64,000 nucleotides of DNA from Chloroflexota bacterium (GTDB lineage Bacteria; Chloroflexota; Dehalococcoidia; Bin125): the NCBI GenBank assembly GCA_028874365.1, contig JAPPJZ010000047.1, forward strand, positions 4,306 through 68,305. Direction: 5' to 3'. The notes under the pieces are model-generated. The model saw nothing but the letters and a program-made list of their open reading frames with translations, had not been told where the DNA came from and searched no databases. Shown here piece after piece: positions 10,895-64,000 of this stretch (positions are counted from its first letter, which is position 1; every line of letters begins with the position of its first letter). The position numbers and the translations under genes are program-made.

Positions 10895-13800
10895 CTACCA
10901 GCTATCGATGTAGGGCCGTCTGCCTTCGCGGATCGGTTCGGAGTTGGGCACGGCGTCGAGCAGTCGCAGGATCCACTGGCGTGTCTCGGCCGGGTCGATC
11001 ACGTCGTCCGATTCGAGCACCGTGGCGGCGTTGAAGGCGTTGCCGCGCTCGTAGGCGTCGGCGACCATTTCCTCGTAGACGCGGGTTCGTTCTTCGAGGT
11101 CCTCAATCTGTTCGAGCTGCGCTCTCGCTCCCAGTTTGACACCGGCTTCGAGGTTCATGCCGCCGTACTCGGAGGTCGGCCAGCCAACGTTGAACAGGCC
11201 GGCCTCGGTGCTCCCGGCGAGCATCGCCAGCCCGCCGAGTCCGTAACACTTGCGCAGGGTGATCGTCATCTTCGGCGTGGTCAGGTTGGCCAGCGAGACG
11301 AAGACTCGGTGGCAGTGGCGGACGAGGGCGGTCTTCTCGACCTCTGGACCGACCATCATGCCGGGCGTGTCGACCAGCGTCAGCAGCGGGATGTTCCAGC
11401 AGTCGCAGATCTGCGCGAAGCGAGCCAGCTTGTCCGAGCCGTCGCTATCGACCGCGCCTCCGAGATGCATGTTGTTGTTGGCGATCACGCCAACCGGCCG
11501 ACCTTCAATCCGAATCAACGACGTCACGACGCCGATGCCGAACTCGGGTCGCAGTTCCAACACCGAGTCGTGGTCGGCCAACAGATCGATGACCTTGCGC
11601 ACGTCGTAGGTGCGCAACCGGTTCTCGGGAATGACGTGGCGCAAGAGCCGCTGATCCGGTGCGGTCCACTCCGCAAGCCGTCCCTGGAAGTAGGAGAGGT
11701 ACTTCTTCACCGCGGCCATCGCTTCCTCTTCGTCCTTGACGAAGATGTCTACGACGCCGTTCGGCACCTGCTGCGACATTGGGCCGAGTTCCTCGGGCAG
11801 GAACAGCCCCAGCCCGCCGCCCTCGATCACCGCCGGACCGCCCATGGCGATGTTGGAGCCCTCGGTCGCGACGATGATGTCGCACATGCCGAGCATCGAG
11901 GCGTTGCCGGCGAAGCAACGACCGGCAGTGATCGAGACCATGGGCACCTTCCCCGAGAGCTCAGCGAGCCGCTCGAACGTGCGAACGTTTCGCGCCGCGA
12001 CGCGGGTGTATGCCCAGTCGGAATCTCCCGAGCGGCCGCCTGCGCCTTCGGCGATGAAGACCAACGGTGTCAGCAGGCGATGTGCCGTCTCGACCATGCG
12101 GTCCGTTTTCTCGTGACCGCGGCCACCCTGGGTGCCGGCCCAGACCGTTTCGTCGTAGGAAATGATCGCTGTGCTGGCCACGTCGTTCTCAAACAGGTCA
12201 GCGTTGACCGTGCCGATCCCGCAGATCAGGCCGTCGGCCGGCGAGACCACCCGCAGTTCTTCCCATGATCGCTTGCGCCGTTGCGCCGCAACACCGAGCG
12301 GCATGTACTCATTCCAAGTCCCGCCCTCGACGAGCTGGGTGATGTTCTCGCGCGCGGTCCGCTTGCCCTTGGCGTGGCGCCTGGCGACCGGCCCCGGCCG
12401 GGCGTCGTCCAGCAACGCCTCGTGCAGGTCGATGTTGTGCTGCAGGTCGGGGCGGATGTAATCGAGGTCAATCTCACCCGAGCCGCCGTCGACGGCCGGA
12501 CCAACGTCGGCCGGCTCGATGAACACGAGCGGGTGACCCTCCCAGATGATGTCGCCGATCGAGACGGTGATCTCCTGGACGATTCCGCCGATATCGGCCT
12601 GGAGCACGTGCTCCATCTTCATCGCGTTCATGATGATCACGTCCTGGCCGGCGACCACGCTGTCCCCTTCACCAACGAGGATCTCAATGATCGTGCCCTG
12701 GATCGGTGCGCGCAGCGGCTCGGTGCCCGGCGGCCCGATGATCTCCGGCGCGGGGAACCCGGCGCGATCCTCTTCCAGCCCCCGGTTGACATCGAGCGAC
12801 GCCGCACCGGCGCCCTGGCGGAAAAAGTCGAGCGCGGCCAACGGGTCCGTGACCTGGTTCTCAACCTGGGCACCGGCCCAGGCCGACTGTCCTCCGGCGG
12901 ACGCGCCGTTGTCCGATGTCGCAGCCAGTTCGCCGATACGCTCGTCGATCCAGCGCGTGTGGACGTTGCCTGCGATGAACTCCGGATGACTCAGGATGTT
13001 GCGCAGGAACCCGATGTTCGAGTCCGGTCCCTCGAGTTGGAACTCGTCCAACGCCCGCTGAGCTCGACGAACGGCGTCGTTGAAGTTACCGCTCGGATGG
13101 CGGGTGACGACCTTGGCGATCAGGGAATCGAAGTTCGGATTGGCCGCATATCCGGCGTAGCCATAGGTGTCGACACGTACGCCGGGACCGGCGGGCGGAC
13201 GGAACGTGCGCAGCGCGCCAGCGGCCGGACGTACGTCGCCGTCTTCGCGCATCCGCTCGAGGTTGACCCGGGACTGGATGGCAAACCCGCGTAGCGCTGG
13301 CGGAGCGTCGATGCCCAGGTCGGCCAGGGCCGCGCCTTCGGCGATGCGAATCTGGCACTCGACCAGGTCCAGTCCGGCGACCTCTTCGGTCACGGTGTGT
13401 TCGACCTGCAGCCGCGCATTGGCCTCGATGAAGGCGAAGTCGTCGTTGGTGTCGGCGTCGACCAGAAACTCGAACGTGCCGAGATTGGAATAACCGCCGG
13501 CCGCAGCCAGTTCAACCGCGGCCGTGGTGATTCGCTCGCGCAGATCGTCGCTCAACGTCGGTGACGGCGCGATTTCGATCAGCTTCTGGTAACGGCGCTG
13601 GATCGTGCATTCACGCTCCCCGACATGGGTCACAGCGCCATGCTGGTCACCGACAATCTGCACCTCGATGTGTCGCGCCCGGGGAATGAATCGCTCGACG
13701 AAGAGAGCCCCATTGCCGAACGCCGCCTGAGCCTCGCGCGTGCAGCGTTCGAAGGCGTCCTCGATCTCGGACGATTCGTTGATCGCGCGCATCCCGCGCC

Positions 13801-14293
13801 CACCACCACCACCGATCGCCTTGATCACCATTGGTCGGCCGCCGAGCTGCTCGAAGAAGGCGCGAGCCCCGTCCAGGTCGACCGCGTGGTCCGTGCCGGT
13901 CAGGACCGGAACACTGCGCGCTCCGGCGAGCGTGCGAGCGCGGGCCTTGTCGCCGAACAGGGCCAGGGCGGCCGGAGACGGTCCAACGAACGTGATTCCC
14001 GCTTCTTCGCAGGCGCGAGCGAAGTCAGCGTTCTCGGCGAGGAAGCCGTAACCGGGGTGGATGGCGTCGCATTCGTGCTCTTGCGCACGTTCAATGATTT
14101 GGGCGATATCGAGGTAGGCCGCCGGTCCGATCCCCTCCAGTGCGATGACGGTGTCAGCGTGCCGAACGTGGTCAGATGCGCCATCGTCGGACGAGTGGAT
14201 CGCCGCCGTGGCAACTCCGAGTTCAGTTGCAGTCCGCAGGACGCGGACGGCAATTTCACCACGGTTGGCGACGAGCAGGCGTTGAATGGGCAT
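10895..14293 (-). CDS. Single-chain acyl-CoA carboxylase (biotin carboxylase + BCCP + carboxyltransferase), 1132 aa
   Basis: LVANRGEIA, IHPGYGFLAEN, ARLQVEH; biotin motif AMKM; CT motifs GTQG, EGAGGR and DTPGMMVGP. Confidence 0.92.
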   Translation of the reverse strand: MPIQRLLVANRGEIAVRVLRTATELGVATAAIHSSDDGASDHVRHADTVIALEGIGPAAYLDIAQIIERAQEHECDAIHPGYGFLAENADFARACEEAGITFVGPSPAALALFGDKARARTLAGARSVPVLTGTDHAVDLDGARAFFEQLGGRPMVIKAIGGGGGRGMRAINESSEIEDAFERCTREAQAAFGNGALFVERFIPRARHIEVQIVGDQHGAVTHVGERECTIQRRYQKLIEIAPSPTLSDDLRERITTAAVELAAAGGYSNLGTFEFLVDADTNDDFAFIEANARLQVEHTVTEEVAGLDLVECQIRIAEGAALADLGIDAPPALRGFAIQSRVNLERMREDGDVRPAAGALRTFRPPAGPGVRVDTYGYAGYAANPNFDSLIAKVVTRHPSGNFNDAVRRAQRALDEFQLEGPDSNIGFLRNILSHPEFIAGNVHTRWIDERIGELAATSDNGASAGGQSAWAGAQVENQVTDPLAALDFFRQGAGAASLDVNRGLEEDRAGFPAPEIIGPPGTEPLRAPIQGTIIEILVGEGDSVVAGQDVIIMNAMKMEHVLQADIGGIVQEITVSIGDIIWEGHPLVFIEPADVGPAVDGGSGEIDLDYIRPDLQHNIDLHEALLDDARPGPVARRHAKGKRTARENITQLVEGGTWNEYMPLGVAAQRRKRSWEELRVVSPADGLICGIGTVNADLFENDVASTAIISYDETVWAGTQGGRGHEKTDRMVETAHRLLTPLVFIAEGAGGRSGDSDWAYTRVAARNVRTFERLAELSGKVPMVSITAGRCFAGNASMLGMCDIIVATEGSNIAMGGPAVIEGGGLGLFLPEELGPMSQQVPNGVVDIFVKDEEEAMAAVKKYLSYFQGRLAEWTAPDQRLLRHVIPENRLRTYDVRKVIDLLADHDSVLELRPEFGIGVVTSLIRIEGRPVGVIANNNMHLGGAVDSDGSDKLARFAQICDCWNIPLLTLVDTPGMMVGPEVEKTALVRHCHRVFVSLANLTTPKMTITLRKCYGLGGLAMLAGSTEAGLFNVGWPTSEYGGMNLEAGVKLGARAQLEQIEDLEERTRVYEEMVADAYERGNAFNAATVLESDDVIDPAETRQWILRLLDAVPNSEPIREGRRPYIDSW

Positions 14294-14342: not shown

Positions 14343-15437
14343 TCAACCGCTGGCAACGGCGTCGGCGATCAGACTGCCCAGCGCTTCCGTACTGAGGGAA
14401 TCCTCGCCGTCGCCTGCGAGGTCAGCTGAACGATGACCGGCGGCGAGGGTGTCGATAACCGCCTCTTCGATCGTGCTCGCTTCGTTCTCAAGGCCGAGCG
14501 AGTAACGGAGCATCAGAGCAGCGCTGAGGATCATCGCCATCGGATTGGCGATCCCCTGGCCGGCGATGTCGGGCGCGGTGCCGTGGATCGGCTCATAGAG
14601 GCCCAGCGTCGAGCCGTCTTCGGATGCGCCAAGCGAAGCCGAGGGCAGCATGCCCATCGAACCGGCCAGCATTGACGCTTCGTCGGTCAGGATGTCGCCG
14701 AACATATTCTCGGTGACGATCACGTCGAAGTAGGACGGATGGCGAATCAGGTCCATCGCGCAGGCGTCGACGAGGCGGTGTTCCAGGGTGACGTCCGTAT
14801 AGTCCTTCGCGACTTCGTCGGCGATTTCGCGCCACATGCGAGAGGTATCGAGGATGTTGGCCTTATCAACCGAGGTCAGCAGCTTGCGTCGCGACCGAGC
14901 CGTCTCAAAGCCAAGCCGCACGATGCGCTCGACCTCGTGCTCGGAGTAGGCGAGCGTATCGACGGCCTTGCGCTGTCCGTCTTCCTCCCAACGACGCTGC
15001 GGCTCGCCGAAGTAGATGCCGCCGGTCAGTTCGCGCAGCACGACCATGTCAACGGCTTCGACGGTCTCACGCTTGAGCGGTGTGGCGTTGGCGAGGATCG
15101 GCAGCATCTTCACCGGTCGGATATTGGCGAACAGGCCGAGGCCCTTGCGCAGGCCGAGGATCGCCTGCTCCGGCCGAACCGACGCCTTGGGGTCGTCCCA
15201 TTTCGGCCCGCCGACGGCGCCAAACAGGACCGCGTCCTGTGCCTGGCACATGGCCAGCGTCTCGTCGCGCAGGGCGACGCCGTGCGCGTCGATCGACGCG
15301 CCGCCGACCAGGTCCTCGCTGTACTCGAAGGAGTGATCGAATCGGCCGCCAACTGCGTCGAGCACGCGAACCGCCTGCCCGATGACTTCGCCGCCGATTC
15401 CGTCACCGGGCAACAGGGCAATCCTGAAATGAGCCAT
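14343..15437 (-). CDS. leuB: 3-isopropylmalate dehydrogenase
   Basis: LPGDGIGGEV, FGAVGGPKWD, RELTGGIYFG, VDKANIL, ENMFGDILTD, YEPIHGTAPDIAG. Confidence 0.96.
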   Translation of the reverse strand: MAHFRIALLPGDGIGGEVIGQAVRVLDAVGGRFDHSFEYSEDLVGGASIDAHGVALRDETLAMCQAQDAVLFGAVGGPKWDDPKASVRPEQAILGLRKGLGLFANIRPVKMLPILANATPLKRETVEAVDMVVLRELTGGIYFGEPQRRWEEDGQRKAVDTLAYSEHEVERIVRLGFETARSRRKLLTSVDKANILDTSRMWREIADEVAKDYTDVTLEHRLVDACAMDLIRHPSYFDVIVTENMFGDILTDEASMLAGSMGMLPSASLGASEDGSTLGLYEPIHGTAPDIAGQGIANPMAMILSAALMLRYSLGLENEASTIEEAVIDTLAAGHRSADLAGDGEDSLSTEALGSLIADAVASG

Positions 15438-15449
15438 ACCTGTCAGTTC

Positions 15450-15656
15450 CTAATCGTCGCTGGAGCGCTCACCCGGAGCGCGTTCTGGAGACACTCAACA
15501 GCCTGGATCGCCGTAGTTGCCACAGCAGATCTGTCGCTCTGTCAGCCTATTCCACCAAATGGCGAGCACCCCGGTGACCAGTCGCCAACCGCTGCGGCCT
15601 TCGGCGCGCAGGTTGGCAATCGCGTCGAGGAATGAGGGTTTCGGGTGCTTTAGCAT
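15450..15656 (-). CDS. Small Cys-rich protein, copy 2; candidate selenoprotein (53 aa to UGA, 68 aa with UGA=Sec)
   Basis: Hand translation MLKHPKPSFLDAIANLRAEGRSGWRLVTGVLAIWWNRLTERQICCGNYGDPGC-[TGA 15497..15495]-VSPERAPGERSSDD-TAG. Not in the ORF track. Paralog of 15762..16013. Confidence 0.7.
15465..15481 (-). promoter_or_regulatory. Candidate bacterial SECIS hairpin (copy 2)
   Basis: mRNA GCGCUC-CGGGU-GAGCGC at +14..+30 after UGA. Confidence 0.6.
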
Positions 15657-15761
15657 CTGAACGCTCTCAGTTGCATCTATCGAACCGCCGAGGCCGCGGT
15701 GTTAGGCGTCAATCGCCACCCATCTTCAACCCGGGCCGCAAGATCGCCACTCCCGGAACCA

Positions 15762-16013
15762 TTAATGTCCATGATCGTGGTGGTGGTTGCGGCGGTGATC
15801 GTGATCGTGGTCTTCCGTCTCCATGCGCTCGGCCCGAGCGCGCTCACCGGACACTCAACAACCCGGGTCACCGTAGTTGCCGCAGCAGTTGTCGACATTC
15901 CGCAGCTTGATCAGATTGTTCTTGATCAGACCGTAGATGGCATGACGCCTACCGATCGATCGGCGCAGGTTGGTAATGGTGTCGCCAATGGTCGGCCTTG
16001 GATGCTGGGGCAT
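15762..16013 (-). CDS. Small Cys-rich protein, copy 1; candidate selenoprotein with His-rich tail (52 aa to UGA, 83 aa with UGA=Sec)
   Basis: MPQHPRPTIGDTITNLRRSIGRRHAIYGLIKNNLIKLRNVDNCCGNYGDPGC-[TGA 15857..15855]-VSGERARAERMETEDHDHDHRRNHHHDHGH-TAA. Confidence 0.7.
15825..15841 (-). promoter_or_regulatory. Candidate bacterial SECIS hairpin (copy 1)
   Basis: mRNA GCGCUC-GGGCC-GAGCGC at +14..+30 after UGA; possible lower stem GUGUCC/GGAGAC (5 of 6 pairs). Confidence 0.6.
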
Positions 16014-16077
16014 GGCATGCTTCTGTCCAGTGGGCCTGGTTCTTGATTGCAAACAGGATAGGGAGCTAGTGACTAAC

Positions 16078-16719
16078 TCAGCGCCAGACTCTCGTCAGGT
16101 CGACGATCAGGCCCTCGGCCACGTCTTCGCCGCTCAGCGAATCTGGACGCTCTAGTCGCTCTGGTTCGGAATCGCCCTGCCGATACACCCAGACTTCACC
16201 TTCCTCGGTGTAGACGTCGATCAACCAGCCGAGCCGAGCATCGGAGGCCATCCACTCCTGCATCTTCTCTTGCTGCTGTTGAGCGCTCTGCGATACCGAA
16301 CGCAACTCCACGATTAATTCAGGGCAGATTGGCCAAAAGCCTTCATCATCCGGCTTCGTGTTCTCGAGCAAGCTTCCACTCGCCCATGCCGCGTCGGGAG
16401 AGCGCACTGCGCTGTTGGGCAGTCGGAAGCCAGTACCTGAGTCGAAGACCTTACCGTCTTGAGTTTTGGCCCACCAAATGTACAACTGGCCGGATAGGTG
16501 AAGAGAGCGGCTGCCGCCGACAGAACCAGTTGGAACAGAAATTTCGAGCGCTCCTTCCGCGTTGCGCTCGAAGCGCCAGAAATCGTTGAGACCACTAATG
16601 GCCAACAGCAACTCGTCGGTGAGGAGGCCCGATGGAAACCGGACAACGAGGGGCCCGGCAGCGGCCTGGGAGTCAGGAGATCCTGTCGTCTGCTCAGTCT
16701 TGATTGCTGCCTGGACCAT
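16078..16719 (-). CDS. Uma2 family (DUF820) PD-(D/E)XK endonuclease-like protein
   Basis: RFERNAEGALEI, DSGTGFRLPNSAVRSPDAAW, CPELIVELRS, ARLGWLID. Confidence 0.9.
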   Translation of the reverse strand: MVQAAIKTEQTTGSPDSQAAAGPLVVRFPSGLLTDELLLAISGLNDFWRFERNAEGALEISVPTGSVGGSRSLHLSGQLYIWWAKTQDGKVFDSGTGFRLPNSAVRSPDAAWASGSLLENTKPDDEGFWPICPELIVELRSVSQSAQQQQEKMQEWMASDARLGWLIDVYTEEGEVWVYRQGDSEPERLERPDSLSGEDVAEGLIVDLTRVWR

Positions 16720-16728
16720 AGGTTGATC

Positions 16729-17319
16729 CTAGAGTGTTACCGGTTTGGTCGACGGTCGTTTGGACTCGTAGTCCGAAATGAGGTCGTCGTGCTCGAGGGT
16801 CAAGGAGATGTCATCAAGGCCGTTGAGCAGGCAGTGTTTGACGAACGGGGCGATGTCGAAGGACCGTACCCAGCCCCCGGGCGCGCTGACGGTCTGGTCT
16901 TCGAGGCTGACCGTGATCGGCGTGTTGGACTCCGACTCGACCATGCGCATCAGCTCTTCGACATCTGGCTGCGGAAGCTGGATCGTGAGTAGGCCCATCT
17001 TGGCCGAGTTATTGCGGAAGATGTCGGCGAACCCGGGTGCGATCACCGCTTTGACGCCCATCCCCTGAATTGCCCAGACGGCGTGTTCGCGGGAGGAGCC
17101 GCAGCCGAAGTTGGGGCCGGCGAGCATCACGCTGGCGCCCTGGTACTGCGGCTGGTTGGTGACGAAGTCGGGATCCTTGGCCCAGGCCTCGAACGCGAAC
17201 GGACCGTAGCCCGTCCGCTCAATCCGCTTGAGGTACTTGGCTGGAATGATCTGGTCGGTGTCGACGTCGGCGCGGTCGAGCGGCAATCCTGTACCGCTGA
17301 AGGTCGTGACGGGATCCAT
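16729..17319 (-). CDS. leuD: 3-isopropylmalate dehydratase small subunit
   Basis: DVDTDQIIPAKYLK, NFGCGSSREHA, FADIFRNN, LLNGLDDI. ATG 17319 has GGAG upstream. Confidence 0.96.
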   Translation of the reverse strand: MDPVTTFSGTGLPLDRADVDTDQIIPAKYLKRIERTGYGPFAFEAWAKDPDFVTNQPQYQGASVMLAGPNFGCGSSREHAVWAIQGMGVKAVIAPGFADIFRNNSAKMGLLTIQLPQPDVEELMRMVESESNTPITVSLEDQTVSAPGGWVRSFDIAPFVKHCLLNGLDDISLTLEHDDLISDYESKRPSTKPVTL

Positions 17320-17346
17320 GGACTGCTCCAATCGGTCTGGGGGATG

Positions 17347-20688: not shown

Positions 20689-21027
20689 TCAGGGCGATGA
20701 CGGAGTGTCCTGGCCGACCTCTGAGAAGTTGGTGATCGCCACTTCGCCTTCCGGAAACTCGGCGACGACCTTCAATCGACCCCCGACGGCCTCGATGTAA
20801 TGGCGCAAGCTGGACACGTAGACATCGGCCCGCTGTTCCATCTTGGCAACGGCAGGCTGGTTGACTTGCAGCCTTTCGGCCAAGTCCTGCTGGGTGAGTT
20901 CGCGCGCCCGGCGCAACTCGTGCAGACGCATTTCGCGCAGCAGTCGACTCTTCTCTTCGTCGATCCGCTTTCGTCTCTCCGGAGAGAAGTCCTTGGTCAG
21001 TTCGCTGAATGGTCGGTGGCCAGCCAT
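20689..21027 (-). CDS. XRE/HTH antitoxin (HigA-like)
   Basis: LHELRRARELTQQDLAERLQVNQPAVAKME HTH; ATG overlaps the toxin TGA (TGATG). Confidence 0.88.
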   Translation of the reverse strand: MAGHRPFSELTKDFSPERRKRIDEEKSRLLREMRLHELRRARELTQQDLAERLQVNQPAVAKMEQRADVYVSSLRHYIEAVGGRLKVVAEFPEGEVAITNFSEVGQDTPSSP

Positions 21028-21386
21028 CAAATCAGTCCTTCCTGTCGCAGCTCTCTCAGATAGTCGTCATAGAGCTTGTCGGCCAACGGCACAAACTCCT
21101 CGTAGAATCGGTCGTTGCCCGTCTTGTCTCCGCCAATCAGCAGAATCGATGTACGCCTAGGGTCGAACGCATAGAAGATCCGAATCGGGCTGCCGCCGCT
21201 CTGCACTCGCAACTCGCGCATGCCGCCGTGTCGCGAGGACCGAACGCTTGACGAATGCGGATACGGAAGATTCGGCCCCTGCTCCTCAATCAACTCAACC
21301 TTGGCTGTGACGCTCCCCTGTTGACGCTCAGAAAGTTGGAGCCACCAATGCTCGAACTCATCGGTGTACTCCACCTCCCATTCCAT
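21027..21386 (-). CDS. RelE/HigB-superfamily toxin (Gp49/DUF891-like)
   Basis: GPNLPYPH, MRELRVQ, IRIFYAFDPRRTSILLIGGDK; toxin precedes antitoxin. Confidence 0.88.
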   Translation of the reverse strand: MEWEVEYTDEFEHWWLQLSERQQGSVTAKVELIEEQGPNLPYPHSSSVRSSRHGGMRELRVQSGGSPIRIFYAFDPRRTSILLIGGDKTGNDRFYEEFVPLADKLYDDYLRELRQEGLI

Positions 21387-62972: not shown

Positions 62973-64000
62973 CGCCGAACCTTCTGTGGATCCATCAGCG
63001 CGACCGGCGCGAGCTGCGAGGCGAACGTCGTCTGCGGCTCGAGCCCGTTTGCCGAACCAGCCTCAGCCGGCCCCGGACGCTGCACCAGGGTCCCCACTCG
63101 GCGTCCCATGCTGGCCGCCGCGGTCCCCGCTTCCAGTGGCAGGTTGCGCGTCCGCAGCCAGCCGAACAGCATGATCACCGTCGCCCCCGCCGCGATCACC
63201 CCAATCAACGCCATCGTCTCCGGACCGCCGATCGCGTCCGCGATCCCGCCCCACACCGGACCAAACAGCGCCTGGAATCCAAACGCCATCATCGCAAACG
63301 ACATCACCCGGCCGAAGTAGGCCGGCTTCGTATTCGCCATCATCAACGACTGGTTGACCAGCATCGTCCCCGACCGCCCAGCCCCGATGAACGCGCCCAG
63401 GATCAGGAACATGCCATAGCTTGGCGCAATCGCCACCACCCAGAAGCCGACCGCCATCACCACACCCATGATCATCAGCAGCGGCCACGCCCATCGCCCC
63501 GAGACCGCCCCGGCCAGCAGCACGTTGATCACCAGCGACGACACCCCGAAGATCAGGAAGGTCGGTCCGACATCCGTCGGCGCCCGGCCAAACTCCTGCG
63601 CCAGCACGCCCGGCAGCAGTGTCTGAAATCCCCAGCCGCAGGCCACGATCAACGAGAAGTAAACCCACAGGTGCCGCAGCCGGGGGTTGCCCCGCAGATA
63701 GCGCAGCCCTTCGAGCAGTTCGACTCGCAGAGCGCGCCGCTCTTCGACCGGCTTGGCCGGCCCCTCGGTGCGGATCGAGGCCGTCAATGGCACCACGATG
63801 GCGAAGAACGAAGCGACGATCAGGAAGAGAATCCCCGTGTTAGGTCCCTCGAGCACGATGAAGACCGCGAAGACCGCGATCAGCGTCGGTCCGAGCACCT
63901 GTCCGGTGTTCATCGACATCTGCTGCAATGCGACGGCGTTCGGCAGCAACCGCCGAGGCACGATGTACCCGGTCCAGGCCTGCCGCGACGGACCCATCAG
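62969..64000 (-). CDS. MFS transporter, tandem paralog 1 (5' end outside the window)
   Basis: GPSRQAW, NTKPAYFGRV, same C-tail motif. Confidence 0.88.
   Translation of the reverse strand: MMGPSRQAWTGYIVPRRLLPNAVALQQMSMNTGQVLGPTLIAVFAVFIVLEGPNTGILFLIVASFFAIVVPLTASIRTEGPAKPVEERRALRVELLEGLRYLRGNPRLRHLWVYFSLIVACGWGFQTLLPGVLAQEFGRAPTDVGPTFLIFGVSSLVINVLLAGAVSGRWAWPLLMIMGVVMAVGFWVVAIAPSYGMFLILGAFIGAGRSGTMLVNQSLMMANTKPAYFGRVMSFAMMAFGFQALFGPVWGGIADAIGGPETMALIGVIAAGATVIMLFGWLRTRNLPLEAGTAAASMGRRVGTLVQRPGPAEAGSANGLEPQTTFASQLAPVALMDPQKVRR

Follow-up and report, generated by a model that had tools for sequence, protein, structure and literature searches.

A putative selenoprotein family with an in-frame UGA and variable histidine-rich tails in Chloroflexota and other phyla

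An in-frame UGA in a small minus-strand gene

We analysed a 64-kb stretch of Chloroflexota DNA (contig JAPPJZ010000047.1; 65% GC), referred to below as the window, in which a small gene on the minus strand, here called copy 1, meets an in-frame UGA codon and continues behind it as a histidine-rich reading frame. Translation of 15762-16052 (minus strand) gives ...MPQHPRPTIGDTITNLRRSIGRRHAIYGLIKNNLIKLRNVDNCCGNYGDPGC, a stop, VSGERARAERMETEDHDHDHRRNHHHDHGH and a second stop. Copy 1 itself comprises a 52-codon open reading frame (ORF) ending in CCGNYGDPGC (15858-16013; MPQHPRP...NVDNCCGNYGDPGC), a TGA (15855-15857), 30 further in-frame codons (15765-15854) and a TAA (15762-15764). We propose that the TGA is a selenocysteine (Sec, U) codon, which would create the Cys-Sec dipeptide ...PGC-U, and that the TAA is the true stop. 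The extension consists of a hairpin-encoded linker, VSGERARAER, and an acidic, His-rich tail, METEDHDHDHRRNHHHDHGH, whose His/Asp core lies at about 15765-15815. A first-pass annotation of the window had pointed to an in-frame run of 8 His in 15 residues behind this UGA, ending at TAA, and minus-strand translation confirmed it, the last 15 residues of the tail holding 8 His.

The part of copy 1 before the UGA has homologs with invariant columns and is predicted to form two basic helices followed by the invariant CCGxYGxPGC loop. An AlphaFold2 model built from 113 sequences has two helices and an unstructured Cys loop, and is of low confidence (predicted local distance difference test score, pLDDT, 63). 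Copy 2 is a paralog 200 nt downstream, its start ~105 nt from the end of copy 1, and the window holds these two copies only. It has 53 codons before the UGA (15498-15656, minus strand; MLKHPKPSFLDAIANLR...ICCGNYGDPGC), an in-frame UGA at 15495-15497 and an extension that, with its TAG, spans 15450-15494. The CCGNYGDPGC-TGA junction is identical to that of copy 1 and is followed by VSPERAPGERSSDD-TAG, the stop lying within TAGGAAC and the leuB ATG 12 nt behind it. In L006, L019, L022, L036 and L050 copies 1 and 2 have a third paralog in tandem between them, ...CCGRYGDPGC-TGA-TGPPDAQDERPTDE (L numbers denote homologous loci or contigs, and P numbers protein clusters).

An initial protein search returned six clusters only, all of them "hypothetical proteins" from Chloroflexota metagenome-assembled genomes (MAGs) that stop at PGC. 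A degenerate DNA pattern for CCGxYGxPGC, with the next codon unconstrained, matched at least 120 genome contigs. Among the matches listed, the codon behind PGC is TGA in 125 of 125 distinct family genes, and these genes are the sample for the TGA, second-stop, hairpin and tail-His counts given below. True members have an N-terminal NxR...P...N.W.K.R region in common, and chance matches to the pattern (Streptomyces Gly/Cys-rich repeats, Firmicutes) have non-TGA next codons. Hosts among the matches listed are Dehalococcoidia, Dormibacterota, Acidimicrobiia and other Actinomycetota, Anaerolineales, Caldilineae, Roseiflexaceae, Tepidiformaceae and Limnocylindria. OZ241849.1, OZ241982.1 and OZ242948.1 are examples of complete chromosomes with the gene.

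The stops that end the extensions are mixed (TAG 67, TGA 41, TAA 16). TGA also serves as an ordinary stop in the window, where it ends 23 of 53 putative genes, and genome-wide reassignment of TGA is therefore excluded. Profile searches gave 245 clusters at the 90% identity level and 533 at the 50% level, unnamed and without Pfam domains, and nearly all of them terminate exactly at PGC, a few forms with Cys at the U position excepted.

A SECIS-like hairpin and cysteine-containing homologs

Both window copies carry a hairpin behind the UGA that resembles a selenocysteine insertion sequence (SECIS). In copy 1 this is GCGCUCG-GGC-CGAGCGC (15825-15841, minus strand), with a stem from +17 to +33, counted from the U of the UGA, and a loop that starts at +24; in copy 2 it is GCGCUC-CGGGU-GAGCGC (15465-15481, minus strand). 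Folding of the 63 nt from the UGA with RNAfold placed a hairpin at nearly the same position in all subfamilies. By direct measurement, 111 of 125 genes have the loop start between +22 and +26. The hairpin is present in unrelated genomic contexts too. At least six contiguous pairs form in 74% of the genes, as against 20% of dinucleotide shuffles and 24% behind the second stop. As a control, the same script placed the apical loop of Escherichia coli fdhF UGA140, GGUC, at +22 to +25, a matching geometry.

The hairpins vary in sequence, with 59 distinct 5' arms and the loops CGUGC, GGC, CGGGU, GGA, GUU, CGUGA, GUG and GGUC. The 35 distinct hairpins with a triloop show covariation at each of the 7 stem pairs, with 74 double-change cells compared with 19 in shuffles and at most 15 with a slid partner, and the first loop base is G without exception. 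In L073 the arms GCGCUCA...UGAGCGC have become GCGUUCA...UGAACGC, a change from Ala to Val on one arm and a silent change on the other, which is an instance of RNA-level selection in the window's own subfamily. The Dormibacterota hairpin GGCC-CGUGC-GGCC is invariant even at synonymous sites. In nine loci (L015, L023, L028, L075, L095, L097, L100, L105, L121) the next stop follows 0-2 codons behind the UGA (U-RR-stop, U-RS-stop, U-RG-stop, U-R-stop or U-stop), and the SECIS-like hairpin is wholly untranslated, an uncommon arrangement among SECIS elements of bacteria.

In a scan of metagenomes for genes with a Cys codon where the others have TGA, we found two contigs, L132 and L133 (TGC; ...CCGHYGEPGC-C-E-stop). 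An exhaustive hidden Markov model search added five clusters that continue past PGC with Cys at the U position (P0144, P0163, P0202, P0219 and P0265), all with hydrophilic tails and His-containing end segments. P0265 reads ...PGCCVGPDGSGSDPHDHDHDH, that is PGC-C-VGPDGSGSDPHDHDHDH, next to Sec relatives U-VGPRGESGPDSEGHTHNHDHDHDEGHED and U-VGPQPSGSDGSDTTPN; P0163 reads ...PGC-C-ISSGSHASGDAHPHDHQH and P0202 ...PGC-C-EGSSAKGHHHGEEEDVEK, while the tails of P0144 and P0219 end in ...GEHSH and ...GHTH. The Cys codon was confirmed in DNA as TGT (L137) and TGC (L138). On either side of the position these Cys-forms align to Sec-forms from their own subfamily (VGPDGSGSD... versus U-VGPRGESGPDS... and U-VGPQPSGSDGS...) and they carry the His-rich tail inside an ordinary ORF. 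We regard such putative Sec/Cys pairs as the decisive evidence for recoding.

At the SECIS position L137 still has a perfect hairpin, GGGUCCG-GUU-CGGACCC, and L138 has none; L137 looks like a recent and L138 like an older Sec-to-Cys conversion. Cys-forms make up only about 6 of the best 150 representatives, whereas Cys homologs are numerous in most selenoprotein families. A "Trp" form, P0152 (L139), was rejected: its DNA has TGA, and a public gene call, evidently under genetic code 4, had put Trp at the Sec-UGA as well as at the UGA that is the true stop. P0213, with W at the U position, may likewise be a genetic code 4 artefact.

One family locus can be tied to a genome with published functional annotation. 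L022 (MPNM01000004.1), with three tandem gene copies, is a contig of "Chloroflexi bin125" (MPNM00000000), for which Table S4 of the sponge study of Slaby et al. 2017 lists one SelA (COG1921) and one SelB (COG3276) (PMC5649159); SelA and SelB are listed for all 8 Chloroflexi bins of that study (PMC5649159). Dehalococcoidia MAGs rank among the most selenoprotein-rich bacteria listed in a further source (PMC13326102), and Dehalogenimonas has selC together with genes for Sec synthesis and a Sec-specific elongation factor (PMC4918011).

The histidine-rich tail and the gene neighbourhood

The copy 1 tail is the sole 8-His window among ~128,000 15-codon windows in six frames of the 64 kb, where the six-frame His frequency is 2.6%. 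The second-most His-dense stretch has 7 His (63431-63478, plus strand) and lies antisense to a gene for a major facilitator superfamily (MFS) transporter. Part of the copy 1 His tract is a (GATCAC)x2.5 hexanucleotide repeat, an overlap which indicates that low-complexity expansion contributes to the tract. The first-pass annotation had raised the question of whether homologs keep the His tail in frame. They do so among ~96%-identical relatives, an outcome in favour of its reading, and, recurrently, in unrelated subfamilies; the tract is missing from orthologs of 70-80% identity. The closest relatives (~96% identical) retain the His/Asp tail of copy 1 in frame (HDHHHNHHHDHGHGHDHR and similar). 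Their tails differ by an indel of 6 nt and by exchanges of CAC with CAT and of GAT with GAC, and a 1-nt indel directly behind the second stop destroys the frame. In all the relatives from the first six clusters both copies have TGA behind PGC, and the in-frame continuation is kept as V[ST]GERARAER in copy 1 and VSPERAPGER in copy 2.

Across the 125 genes, tail His residues are concentrated in one forward frame, with 187 in frame 0 versus 7 and 37 in the others; 31 of the 125 members have at least 3 in-frame His, and 0-1 members do in the other frames. Past residue 11, beyond the hairpin, H accounts for 23% of the tail residues, D for 20% and E for 10%, and hydrophobic residues are nearly absent. 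His-rich tails occur in unrelated subfamilies with very different linkers (LREVEPPGGGHHHH, QVYDEGLVQSHNHDHNHSHS, RGPDNDPGRSHHHDHQH, MTLEEARAAGLVNPHDHKPHDHKPHDHGK, QPANGPREGPHDGNNNNDHHHHHHHHHH), and subfamily protein motifs such as VGPxxSGSD, PPGGGH and EARAAGLI lie downstream of U. Tail length ranges from 0 to 50 residues, some members having only U-R-R-stop. The sequence of the opening ~10 residues of the extension (VSGERARAER) is set mainly by the RNA hairpin, and His/Asp tracts have been gained repeatedly in the tail past this constrained linker.

N-terminal His-rich tracts occur in L058, L103, L105, L118, L121, L063, L080 and L098, and in P0084, P0116 and P0055 (e.g. MSDSGHQDHHHHHHHHSG...). 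In L058, L103, L105, L118 and L121 the tail behind the UGA is His-free or two residues long. The position of the His module along the protein appears to be flexible. The tract is a lineage-specific, exchangeable accessory module, found in about a quarter of members and at either terminus, and is not part of the conserved core.

In the window the gene pair lies in a leucine biosynthesis cluster. The leuB gene for 3-isopropylmalate dehydrogenase (14343-15437, minus strand; PF00180 in syntenic loci) is directly downstream and leuD (16729-17331) upstream on the same strand, with a gene for a putative Uma2-family (PF05685) endonuclease (16078-16719, minus strand) between leuD and copy 1. Close-relative contigs have the gene order leuD-(Uma2)-copy 1-(copy 2)-leuB in common. 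The Uma2 gene is also present in L006-L011 and missing from the otherwise syntenic L001-L005, and looks like an insertion into the leu cluster. About 24 Chloroflexota loci have a leuD-X-leuB arrangement, with several tail types. In Dormibacterota the context is DUF520-hisA-(131-aa protein)-X; elsewhere QueF and PrpD-like genes occur, and SDR is also among the neighbours.

In other Dehalococcoidia the stop of the extension lies 3-12 nt from leuB in 24 of 26 cases (full range 3-34 nt; loci L001, L005, L006, L009, L017, L019, L036-L038, L047, L050, L065, L071, L092, L113, L122), and the last tail codons before leuB make GAGGA/GGAGG-type sites, the window having a conserved TAGGAAC (15435-15452). 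The leuB gene is in frame with the upstream ORF in 23 of 26, and so not always.

Two other roles for the gene were considered and rejected. For a leu-operon attenuation leader, neither ORF has a run of Leu codons, there is no terminator-like site in 15300-16900 and the gene also occurs outside leu clusters; for a precursor of a ribosomally synthesised and post-translationally modified peptide, no maturase gene is among the recurrent neighbours. Farther away in the window, two small overlapping ORFs (119 and 113 aa; 20689-21386, minus strand) between gyrA and a luciferase-like gene are probably a toxin-antitoxin module; in L009 a Gp49 (PF05973) and HTH_37 gene pair lies upstream of the luciferase-like gene. 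Downstream of leuB, a single ORF of 1132 aa (10895-14293, minus strand) has a syntenic counterpart with biotin carboxylase, biotin-lipoyl and carboxyltransferase domains, a fused acyl-CoA carboxylase.

Interpretation, alternatives and significance

For 12 read-through or Cys-form sequences (the two window copies and 10 diverse members, U given as C) NCBIfam returned no match at E<=10, and the curated models for SaoC (NF040734), KCU-star DUF466 (NF033934), UXX-star (NF041114, NF041211) and the CC/Se motif (NF041239) went unmatched. Pfam searches with the window copies and with read-through and Cys-form homologs gave sub-threshold noise only, the best being ZrgA at 15.5 bits (cut-off 27.4), and a PDB profile search found no match (best E = 0.34). 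We found no description of a CCGxYGxPGCU family in the literature, and the motif is in none of the 119 families and subfamilies tabulated by a 2026 review. Haft & Gwadz ask of a new selenoprotein family that it have at least 10 members, 100% TGA, similarity that extends across U and a SECIS stem whose loop contains G, and each of these is found in the CCGxYGxPGCU family.

The family resembles fdhF and other genes with a SelB-type SECIS in its in-frame UGA, in the small G-containing apical loop (often GU or GG) about 22-26 nt from U, in the translation of the hairpin and in the existence of Cys homologs. In contrast to fdhF, the protein is unrelated, its Sec stands beside Cys near the C-terminus of a ~50-residue domain, and the hairpin is untranslated in some members. 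Mammalian thioredoxin reductase, a large flavoenzyme with a eukaryotic 3'-UTR (untranslated region) SECIS, has a C-terminal Gly-Cys-Sec-Gly redox centre, and here too a vicinal Cys-Sec pair is preceded by Gly on a flexible C-terminal segment (Pro-Gly-Cys-Sec); unlike that enzyme, the present proteins have a 50-residue domain predicted to be helical and an extra Cys-Cys pair 7 residues upstream.

The tails recall those of HypB, UreE, SlyD, CooJ and Hpn, which have terminal His/Asp/Glu tracts that are variable in length and dispensable in some orthologs, Hpn adding Cys-Cys pairs; His tracts are classic metal-capture arms of Ni/Zn chaperones. This likeness is one of composition only, in the form of low-complexity terminal His/Asp/Glu tracts. 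We found no match to a chaperone domain, and no nickel, urease or hydrogenase genes nearby, the neighbours being leuD, leuB, Uma2, hisA, DUF520, SDR, QueF and PrpD-like genes. Comparable in layout are the CU-motif selenoproteins (SaoC "Cys-Cys-COOH", KCU-star/DUF466, SaoL, HgcA, MbdU), small proteins with Cys-Sec at or near the C-terminus whose database entries end at the UGA. They differ in that there is no sequence similarity, signal peptide or SAO/Hgc neighbourhood here, and in that the CCGxYGxPGCU loop and the His tails are specific to this family. The SaoC SECIS has a 7-bp stem with a GGU loop, and the CU motif has been described as rare and proposed to contact heavy-metal atoms (Haft & Gwadz; review PMC13188914).

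We consider it likely that the His/Asp run is the C-terminal tail of a ~83-residue selenoprotein (52 aa, Sec and 30 aa) made by canonical UGA-Sec decoding. The UGA at 15855-15857 would be decoded by SelB and Sec-tRNA(Sec), which would be recruited by the SECIS hairpin 17-33 nt downstream (15825-15841). The ribosome would then translate the hairpin as the linker VSGERARAER and continue through the low-complexity acidic/His tail to the TAA. The hairpin would constrain the linker, and the rest of the tail would be free to evolve as a hydrophilic low-complexity segment. The product would combine, in the invariant CC-x7-CU loop, three thiols and one selenol as vicinal Cys-Cys and Cys-Sec pairs. The first-pass annotation had coupled the Cys/Sec site with a tail that binds Ni, Zn, Co or Cu, and such a metal-binding role is plausible. 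To the further proposal that this CC...CU loop serves as a soft-metal site, an Fe-S site or a redox site, with the His/Asp tract as an accessory metal-capturing arm, we give about even weight; a small protein for metal handling or an Fe-S/redox role, on which the His arm would be optional, is favoured because CU motifs have been proposed to contact heavy metals and His tracts act as metal-capture arms. The first-pass claim that the UGA is recoded and the tail is part of the protein is supported by TGA in 125 of 125 genes, by the hairpin, by the in-frame His and by the Cys-forms. Comparative sequence evidence gives good support to UGA recoding, a SECIS-type hairpin, translation of the tail and recurrence of the His tract; the mechanism appears canonical, and the family itself appears undescribed and systematically mis-annotated.

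Several observations weigh against this interpretation. The 64-kb window and ~1 Mb of flanking loci yielded no tRNA-Sec, selA, selB or selD: ARAGORN and Rfam (gathering threshold) found nothing in the window, ARAGORN found no tRNA-Sec in 60 family loci, and tblastn of the window and the ~1 Mb of loci with the E. coli proteins SelA, SelB, SelD and FdhF as queries gave no relevant match, the sole one being to a SelB/elongation factor-like sequence in a decoy Butyricicoccus locus. Folded as single sequences, the two window hairpins are no better in energy than shuffles (z = -0.56 and +0.12), and the RNA case is therefore built on position and covariation. Sequences entered the triloop alignment for having a hairpin, which biases the percentage paired and leaves arm diversity unbiased, and in a Dormibacterota subgroup the stem is perfect and only 4 bp long. 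As to the tail, the orthologs of 70-80% identity without a His tract end in ...MSQEGE, ...IQEDDR or ...IDEDQD (6 residues, acidic), and the tract in copy 1 overlaps a 6-nt repeat, in which in-frame indels require no selection. Clustering of neighbour genes gave no partner conserved across phyla that would suggest a function, and the purine-rich codons that close the tail in the leuB-linked clade may just supply the leuB ribosome-binding site.

The main rival for the His run accepts Sec recoding and translation of the tail, and holds that the run has no metal function, being a neutral expansion or hydrophilic spacer that hosts the SECIS and, elsewhere, a ribosome-binding site. The tract-less orthologs and the (GATCAC)n overlap are in its favour, as are the spread of tail lengths from 0 to 50 residues, with a bare U-R-R-stop in some members, and, next to leuB, acidic codons that coincide with GAGGA-type ribosome-binding sites. 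Set against it are the independent recurrence of His enrichment in many subfamilies, in different codon contexts and in Cys-forms, the N-terminal His tracts where the tail has none, and the CAC/CAT and GAT/GAC swaps that keep the composition, and we judge this account somewhat unlikely. Recoding as something other than Sec, whether by SelB/SECIS-dependent Cys insertion through a Sec-like tRNA or by near-cognate Trp, Cys or Gly read-through, would fit the lack of selC, selA, selB and selD in the window and flanking loci, and for Dormibacterota we found no published mention together with selenocysteine. It is nonetheless improbable: the hairpin geometry and G-containing loop fit a SelB-type SECIS, SelA, which makes Sec-tRNA, accompanies SelB in MAG bin125, and homologs replace the codon by Cys, not by Trp or Gly.

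A genuine stop at ...PGC, with the hairpin as a regulatory RNA of another type (for attenuation, stability or processing) and no translation of the His codons, agrees with every gene caller, all of which end the protein at PGC, and with the placement of the gene inside amino-acid biosynthesis clusters (leuD-leuB; hisA in Dormibacterota). Yet it leaves the 100% TGA, the frame-specific His/Asp, the continuous-ORF Cys homologs and the subfamily motifs behind the UGA unaccounted for, there is no terminator-like site, and the hairpin recurs in unrelated contexts; we hold it to be highly improbable. The first-pass annotation had offered a separate ~20-aa peptide, METEDHDHDH..., from an internal ATG (15822-15824), and that ATG is indeed present in the window and its closest relatives. 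It abuts the 3' arm of the hairpin, however, lacks an obvious Shine-Dalgarno motif in front of it, gives way to an Ile or Leu codon in orthologs (ERIQEDDR, ERIDEDQD, ERIAGDDHRHQQ, ERLKAEED), and has no equivalent in other subfamilies, whose His tails lack a preceding Met, so that this alternative falls away almost entirely. Least credible of all is that the real gene is the plus-strand ORF at 15699-16046, which does exist (115 aa) and whose product has a hydrophobic run, MSMIVVVVAAVIVIVVF. That ORF overlaps the conserved minus-strand gene and mirrors its His/Asp codons (GTG/ATC), its hydrophobic run vanishes wherever the His tail is missing, and the flanking genes are all on the minus strand. 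Standing at the start of the ORF, the run might pass for a membrane peptide or an Ile/Val leader.

If the Sec reading is taken further, the isoform switch suggested in the first-pass annotation, with selenium supply deciding between a short and a long product, is no more than conceivable in principle, since RF2 is a competitor at any Sec codon; UGA termination without Sec is generic to all bacterial selenoproteins. The arrangement before leuB suggests that ribosomes reading through the UGA would terminate on the leuB initiation region, giving translational coupling that depends on Sec decoding. A fuller scenario, which we offer as doubtful, is an uncatalogued small metalloprotein family (CC-x7-CU), nearly always with Sec, in Chloroflexota, Dormibacterota and Actinomycetota, with interchangeable metal-capture His arms; in Dehalococcoidia, Sec read-through of the last copy would in addition place terminating ribosomes on the leuB start 3-12 nt away and make translation of the leucine pathway responsive to selenium or to Sec-decoding capacity.

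If the selenoprotein interpretation is true, hundreds of database entries (533 clusters at 50% identity) would be truncated at their Sec codon, gene callers having halted at the UGA or mis-translated it under genetic code 4, and a whole selenoprotein family would lie hidden in soil, marine and sponge-associated bacteria. The family would be unusual in three ways, in that Sec is nearly always used over Cys, a Cys-Sec pair lies near a Cys-Cys pair, and His-rich tracts are movable. Together these features point to metal or metalloid handling, and would give a testable lead for trace-element biology in poorly studied phyla.

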